This document shows positions 8,938-9,033 of a stretch of 64,000 nucleotides of DNA, piece by piece (position 1 is the first letter of the stretch; each line of letters starts with the position of its first letter). The translations under genes were made by a program, and so were the position numbers. This stretch comes from Escherichia coli (GTDB lineage Bacteria; Pseudomonadota; Gammaproteobacteria; Enterobacterales; Enterobacteriaceae), in NCBI RefSeq assembly GCF_041886205.1, contig NZ_CP169029.1; one strand, written 5' to 3'. The notes below the pieces were generated by a model. It was not told the DNA's origin, ran no database searches, and worked only from the letters and a program-made list of their open reading frames with translations.

Positions 8938-9033
8938 GCACACGAAACAGCGTTGGTCCCCATATACCGCTAAACTGAAACTGCAGCGAAGCAGTTAGCA
9001 GAGCCATGTATATCAGGTCTGTTTCGTGTGCTG
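8938..9033 (+). promoter_or_regulatory. rnc 5' leader long-range stem (likely RNase III autoregulatory cleavage structure)
   Basis: cacgaaacag near 8941 pairs with ctgtttcgtg near 9022, enclosing a structured leader just upstream of rnc. Confidence 0.45.

Follow-up and report, generated by a model that had tools for sequence, protein, structure and literature searches.

What is the perfectly complementary repeat that lies between lepB and rnc in Escherichia coli, and which part of the structure that it closes does RNase III recognize? The rnc gene is a textbook case of a ribonuclease adjusting its abundance through cleavage of its own mRNA, and the level of the essential GTPase Era is set along with it. 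In the 64,000-nucleotide stretch of E. coli DNA analysed here (the window), a first-pass annotation made from the letters alone had pointed to a 10-nt perfect complement in the rnc leader and had read it as part of an autoregulatory RNase III substrate. We find that the repeat is almost certainly the closing helix of stem-loop II of E. coli rncO, the leader element cut by RNase III. The rncO element of E. coli is already known, having been described between 1989 and 1996 (Bardwell et al. 1989; Matsunaga, Simons & Simons 1996, as cited in PMC5371410), and the finding is correct but ordinary. It adds nothing new on E. coli itself; what it does illustrate is that a genuine regulatory RNA helix can be recognised from raw sequence. 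The part that looks new is solely comparative: a core of about 47 nt, lineage-specific apical expansions of the hairpin, and the occasional loss of stem II.

The rnc locus and its promoter

Between positions 8700 and 9300 of the window, the order of elements is the end of a 324-aa ORF (7818-8792), a terminator, a promoter-like site, and a 226-aa ORF that begins at 9065. Many E. coli chromosomes carry the stretch with 100% identity, and of 5426 complete E. coli genomes 5425 have it. In the RefSeq annotation of an identical region the neighbourhood reads rseB-rseC-lepA-lepB and then rnc-era-recO-pdxJ-acpS, and the 226-aa ORF (9065-9745, + strand) is rnc, encoding RNase III. With era, recO, pdxJ and acpS next in line, rnc is under regulation here and at the same time encodes the enzyme that acts in trans. 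RefSeq carries no feature annotation over the rnc leader.

The lepB terminator (8805-8839), a 16-bp perfect hairpin followed by TATTTAT, sits just past the lepB stop codon, between the lepA-lepB unit and the rnc promoter. A sub-threshold mir-2001 hit at this terminator, obtained when Rfam was scanned over 8500-9500, is meaningless. A consensus scan places the promoter-like site of rnc at 8868-8896 (+ strand), with a -35 hexamer ACGACA (8868-8873), a 17-nt spacer and a -10 hexamer TAGAAT (8891-8896). The octamer TATAGAAT (8889-8896), an extended -10, is identical in all 69 of the distinct Enterobacteriaceae leaders that we aligned. An upstream block, CTAACGACATCC, which holds the -35-like ACGACA, recurs with small variations in most of the leaders read.

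The rnc 5' UTR has been defined as nt 1-160 (PMC10037077), and with the ATG at 9065 this puts the transcription start at 8905, which is also position 1 of the Rfam rncO model; the -10 hexamer ends 8-9 nt before it.

An inverted repeat longer than first described

The 10-nt complement is present as had been claimed (8941-8950 with 9019-9028), inside longer arms. A repeat search gives perfectly complementary 13-nt arms, GCACACGAAACAG at 8938-8950 and CTGTTTCGTGTGC at 9019-9031, separated by a 68-nt spacer, and a G8937·U9032 wobble and a C8936:G9033 pair lengthen the helix to 15 bp. Its 5' arm (8936-8950, + strand; CGGCACACGAAACAG) includes the CACGAAACAG of the original observation and pairs with the 3' arm (9019-9033, + strand; CTGTTTCGTGTGCTG), which includes CTGTTTCGTG; together they close a 98-nt hairpin. 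The original observation is therefore confirmed, and it was an understatement, since the helix is longer than described. Its placement in the rnc 5' UTR also holds. It is not directly upstream of the gene, as had been stated, because 31 nt separate the 3' end of the stem (9033) from the ATG (9065).

Could such a repeat be a chance feature without function? Perfect 10-nt inverted repeats with loops of at most 100 nt are not rare here (19 in the window against 6.6 ± 2.9 in dinucleotide shuffles), so that the 10-nt complement by itself is not convincing. Perfect 13-nt repeats, on the other hand, are rare: there are four in the window against 0.125 expected from dinucleotide shuffles. The stability of the hairpin relative to shuffled sequences (z -5.4), the 257-bit match to the rncO family, and the conservation of both arms with compensatory changes in two Enterobacterales families, all described below, argue in the same direction. 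On the strength of the conservation and the family match we reject a chance origin, to which we give practically no credence.

A repeated or mobile element was considered and rejected as well: each E. coli genome has a single copy of the leader, no plasmid carries it, and within the window the 13-mer is confined to these two sites (0.10 expected). Another of the 13-nt perfect repeats, 8806-8838, is the hairpin of the lepB terminator identified by the terminator scan. The remaining two short-loop perfect inverted repeats of at least 13 nt in the window are at 12530-12576, just beyond an ORF at 12130-12510 that is acpS by position, and at 59799-59836, which is A/T-rich with a GC core; to judge from their appearance, both look like terminators.

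The leader folds into three stem-loops

If the first-pass reading were right, folding of 8930-9065 should give a stable extended duplex, and it does: the long hairpin comes out as the structure of minimum free energy (-44.5 kcal/mol, z -2.9) and also as the centroid. Folded alone, 8936-9033 reaches -41.2 kcal/mol with a z score of -5.4, and none of 200 shuffled sequences was equally stable. For the longer segment 8905-9119, the minimum-free-energy and centroid folds agree on three stem-loops: I (8917-8935), II (8936-9033) and III (9085-9104). Above the 15-bp basal helix of stem-loop II, the 5' strand continues with CG (8951-8952) and UUGG (8953-8956), and the 3' strand returns through UCAG (9013-9016) and GU (9017-9018). 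In the fold and in the comparison of leaders, CG and GU face each other as a 2x2 internal loop, and in the E. coli minimum-free-energy fold UUGG pairs with UCAG. What lies between, 8957-9012, forms in E. coli an irregular apical hairpin of about 20 stacked positions.

A strong hairpin in an intergenic region might also be a transcription terminator or attenuator between lepB and rnc. This hairpin lacks a T-run past 9033, the sequence from 9034 onward being AATTGTTGACGC; it lies downstream of the conserved -10, inside the transcript; and the terminator scan returns the lepB terminator (8805-8839) alone, upstream of the rnc promoter. An intrinsic terminator, recognised by a GC-rich hairpin with an immediate U-run, is accordingly rejected, and the terminator or attenuator reading as a whole is very improbable.

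The element is rncO

A scan of 8500-9500 with the Rfam model RF00552 (rncO) gives a + strand match at 8905-9119 with a score of 257.4 bits (E 2e-61), covering model positions 1-214 of 214; the gathering threshold of the family is 43 bits. The element thus begins at the deduced rnc +1 and ends 55 nt into the rnc ORF, so that the whole cis-regulatory leader element comprises the 5' UTR (8905-9064) and the first 55 nt of rnc. The minus-strand hit to the same model scores 22.7 bits and is the expected echo of a long hairpin. Besides this echo and the sub-threshold mir-2001 hit, Rfam found no further RNA family on either strand of 8500-9500.

The three stem-loops of the family are all in place on the + strand. 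Stem-loop I (8917-8935), 5'-proximal and of 7 bp, abuts stem II and is drawn both in the Rfam consensus and in the minimum-free-energy fold. Stem-loop II (8936-9033) corresponds to model positions 32-128 and is identified by the model, the fold and the literature together as the RNase III target hairpin; the span originally reported, 8938-9033, matches it to within 2 nt. Stem-loop III (9085-9104), of 8 bp, lies within the first rnc codons and appears in the Rfam consensus as well as in the minimum-free-energy and centroid folds. Between stems II and III, the linker with the translation initiation region and the rnc ATG at 9065-9067 (9034-9067, + strand) is unpaired in the Rfam consensus, and its sequence, TTGACGCATT...TTGGTATCGCATG, is strongly conserved in the alignment of leaders. 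A full-length score above the threshold, the three stem-loops, and the compensatory change in stem II described below all identify the element as the rncO of the E. coli/Salmonella rnc-era-recO operon, the same element in the same organism and at the same locus, with the hairpin at 8936-9033 as its stem II.

Conservation and covariation across the Enterobacterales

One genome per species was scanned, giving 80 Enterobacteriaceae rnc loci, from which 78 leaders were compared and 69 distinct ones aligned. The structure that was scored consists of stem I, the 15-bp basal helix, the UUGG/UCAG pairing and stem III. In the 69 leaders 95.1% of the cells form standard pairs, compared with 32-47% after a shift of the 3' partners by 1-3 columns. 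Eleven of the 15 pairs of the basal helix are invariant and so give little information on structure. At 8949:9020, 35 leaders have C:G, 27 have A:U and seven are unpaired, a compensatory swap across genera. Five of the seven pairs of stem I change on both sides. In stem III 95.5% of the cells are paired and no pair changes on both sides; stem III is thus without independent support from covariation, and coding constraint also acts there.

Eight loci from more distant Enterobacterales were added, all of which score at or above the RF00552 threshold, with Photorhabdus highest (125.9 bits) and Limnobaculum lowest (43.5 bits). Among the Morganellaceae, the basal helix is retained in Photorhabdus, Xenorhabdus and Proteus, where 8945:9024 shows a second compensatory change (A:U to C:G) and 8941:9028 a tolerated A·G mismatch. 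Single mismatches within the helix occur in several lineages (A·C at 8945:9024, A·G at 8941:9028, A·A or G·A at 8948:9021). One locus (L064), whose arms are canonical, was left out of the automated comparison of arms. Covariation support for the helix comes from two pairs, and its conservation could partly reflect a sequence-specific rather than a purely structural constraint.

A 13-bp perfect dyad would also suit a classical operator, a DNA palindrome bound by a regulatory protein. The half-sites, however, are 68 bp apart in E. coli and 17 to 90 bp apart elsewhere, which is hard to reconcile with a protein dimer of fixed geometry; the G·U pairs and the compensatory exchanges between A:U and C:G are hallmarks of pairing in RNA, and the minus-strand Rfam hit is a mere 22.7 bits. 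The variable spacing across genera and the RNA-type pair changes lead us to reject a DNA operator, which has next to no likelihood.

Stem II is degenerate in Serratia symbiotica and in a Sodalis (among the loci L085-L088), and it is essentially absent from Serratia microhaemolytica and Limnobaculum (Budviciaceae), which keep stem I and the linker; there the RF00552 threshold is still reached by way of stem I, the linker and the coding part. Lineages in which stem II is degenerate or absent may lack this form of RNase III autoregulation. At one of the distant loci (L087), rnc is followed not by era but by an ORF of 186 aa that has no recorded Pfam hit.

A conserved core and a variable apical domain

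In most relatives stem II is much shorter than in E. coli. It measures 47-52 nt, with a short apical loop only, in 53 of the 79 hairpins examined, from genera that include Enterobacter, Kluyvera, Lelliottia, Leclercia and Pluralibacter as well as Trabulsiella, Atlantibacter, Siccibacter, Pseudocitrobacter and others. This short form consists of the 15-bp basal helix, the 2x2 loop (CG opposite GU), the 4-bp UUGG:UCAG helix and a loop of 3-10 nt, mostly 5. The apical domain of about 55 nt (8957-9012 in E. coli) is common, in diverged form, to E. coli and other Escherichia, Salmonella and most Citrobacter. Some Citrobacter are without this domain, and within the genus the length of the whole stem II differs, from 64 nt in one locus (L005) to 50 nt in three others (L026, L027, L034). 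Unrelated apical sequences of 70-95 nt are found in Raoultella (L046, L052, L070-L073), in Kosakonia/Phytobacter (L047, L051) and in Intestinirhabdus (L068). The upper half of the E. coli hairpin is therefore dispensable in most relatives.

The comparison bears on how the top of the core should be drawn. In the 69 leaders the first three UUGG/UCAG pairs are almost constant (U·G in 67, U:A in 69, G:C in 68), and the fourth varies compatibly, being G·U in 50, A:U in 10 and G:C in three, and U:A in the Morganellaceae. UUGG:UCAG is the sole pairing possible in the short-hairpin genera, where the CC:GG pairing drawn by Rfam cannot form. UUGG (8953-8956) paired with UCAG (9013-9016) and stacked on the basal helix is thus better supported than the CC:GG of the RF00552 consensus; this preference apart, our structure does not differ in substance from rncO as drawn in Rfam. 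The core so defined has 15 + 2 + 4 = 21 stacked positions, about two helical turns, and the helix formed by the repeat is the conserved core of rncO.

It is possible, though we hold the idea tentatively and think it somewhat less probable than its contrary, that the functional ancestral stem II was a hairpin of only about 47 nt, that E. coli and Salmonella gained their apical domain of about 55 nt as a lineage-specific expansion, and that the apical domains of 70-95 nt in Raoultella, Kosakonia/Phytobacter and Intestinirhabdus arose independently at the same position, with the expansions perhaps tuning the affinity for RNase III or adding a second cleavage register. If that were true, the expansions would set a different autoregulatory level in each genus, and this way of autoregulating rnc would be lost from the lineages without stem II (Serratia microhaemolytica, Limnobaculum and some endosymbionts). 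The short form also suggests a simple, minimal autoregulatory RNase III site of 47 nt for engineering or mechanistic work.

RNase III cleavage and where it may fall

The first-pass annotation had also proposed that the rnc leader is a substrate of RNase III itself and that its cleavage destabilises the mRNA. The span in question is stem-loop II of rncO, and at the level of the hairpin the literature agrees (PMC3867540, PMC10582724, PMC8708148, PMC10037077). The 5' UTR of the E. coli RNase III message contains an irregular hairpin that the enzyme itself cuts, leaving an unstructured 5'-monophosphate end that is used by RNase E, and rRNA precursors compete for the enzyme and so lift the repression of rnc (PMC3867540). 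In the rnc-era 5' UTR the site of cleavage is a long stem-loop, and expression of era falls together with that of rnc (PMC10582724); the cut destabilises the entire rnc transcript (PMC8708148). In a study from 2023, UTR nt 1-129 fused to a guide RNA underwent RNase III cleavage in vivo, as detected by primer extension (PMC10037077). With +1 at 8905, nt 129 is position 9033, the last base of the helix, so the module that is experimentally sufficient ends exactly where the stem closes.

These reports, together with the features described above, suggest the following sequence of events. Transcription would start at 8905, from the TATAGAAT promoter, and two hairpins would form in the nascent leader, stem-loop I (8917-8935) and, long and irregular, stem-loop II (8936-9033). 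The enzyme encoded by the downstream gene, RNase III, would bind stem-loop II as a double-stranded substrate and cut it. Removal of the structured 5' end would leave a 5'-monophosphorylated and largely unstructured message, open to quick decay by RNase E. With the enzyme engaged on other substrates such as pre-rRNA, the leader would be cut less and more RNase III and Era would be made, which amounts to negative feedback. Cleavage and the ensuing decay are taken from the literature; our own results concern the identity of the element, the family match, the fold, the conservation and the compensatory changes.

Coordinates of the rnc-leader cut are given neither in Gordon 2017, Stead 2011 and the p19 paper nor in several reviews, and the main-text tables of Altuvia 2018 deliberately leave out the rnc sites. 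The core is about two helical turns long, the size of a minimal RNase III substrate, and it is the sole part of stem II kept in all genera; from this we infer that the cut falls within or at the top of the basal helix. Substrates of RNase III in vivo have 11 + 2 + 11 duplex positions, and between the two cuts G-C pairs are favoured (PMC6212723). By this geometry RNase III would sit on the core and plausibly cut around the C:G and G:C pairs 8943-8944 : 9025-9026, a position that is a geometric guess obtained by centring the 11 + 2 + 11 footprint on these pairs. The downstream product of such a cut would begin near 9027 with a short unpaired 5' end, which would agree with the unstructured 5' end described for the cleaved message (PMC3867540).

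The basal helix might instead serve only as a clamp for stem-loop II, RNase III recognising and cutting the apical half at about 8957-9012. In E. coli this half offers about as many irregular stacked positions as the core does, and reviews speak only of "an irregular hairpin" or "a long stem-loop", without positions. But of the 79 hairpins 53 have no apical half, and several other genera carry a non-homologous one, whereas hardly any variation is seen in the promoter, the linker, the basal helix, the 2x2 loop or UUGG/UCAG; conserved autoregulation would require a site in the conserved part of stem II. An apical cut would also leave a downstream 5' end still able to pair, which does not fit an "unstructured 5' end" (PMC3867540). 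We regard apical cleavage as unlikely, though distinctly less so than the chance, terminator and operator readings, and prefer a cut in the core.

Related RNase III substrates and database records

Two known systems invite comparison. The pnp leader, with the RNase III site of rpsO-pnp, resembles rncO in that cutting a hairpin of the 5' leader starts decay of the message (PMC5371410, PMC8708148); it differs in the gene concerned and in its autoregulator, which is PNPase acting after the RNase III cut rather than RNase III. The R1.1 site of phage T7 and its minimal form µR1.1 are, like the short-form stem II of rncO, irregular hairpins of about two turns with an internal loop. The likeness of the short form (15 bp + 2x2 loop + 4 bp) to R1.1 is one of size and shape, and unlike rncO, R1.1 is a processing signal between phage mRNAs and not a feedback element.

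The comparison also touched a few database records. One locus (L069, CACSKA010000009.1), titled "Chryseobacterium sp. 18061", has an rnc locus and leader of the Enterobacteriaceae type and encodes an RNase III 97% identical to that of E. coli, which suggests that the assembly is mislabelled or contaminated. Several database RNase III entries (among P0007-P0015) are 282-283 aa long, compared with the normal 226 aa, a size that would fit gene callers having started upstream, in the leader.
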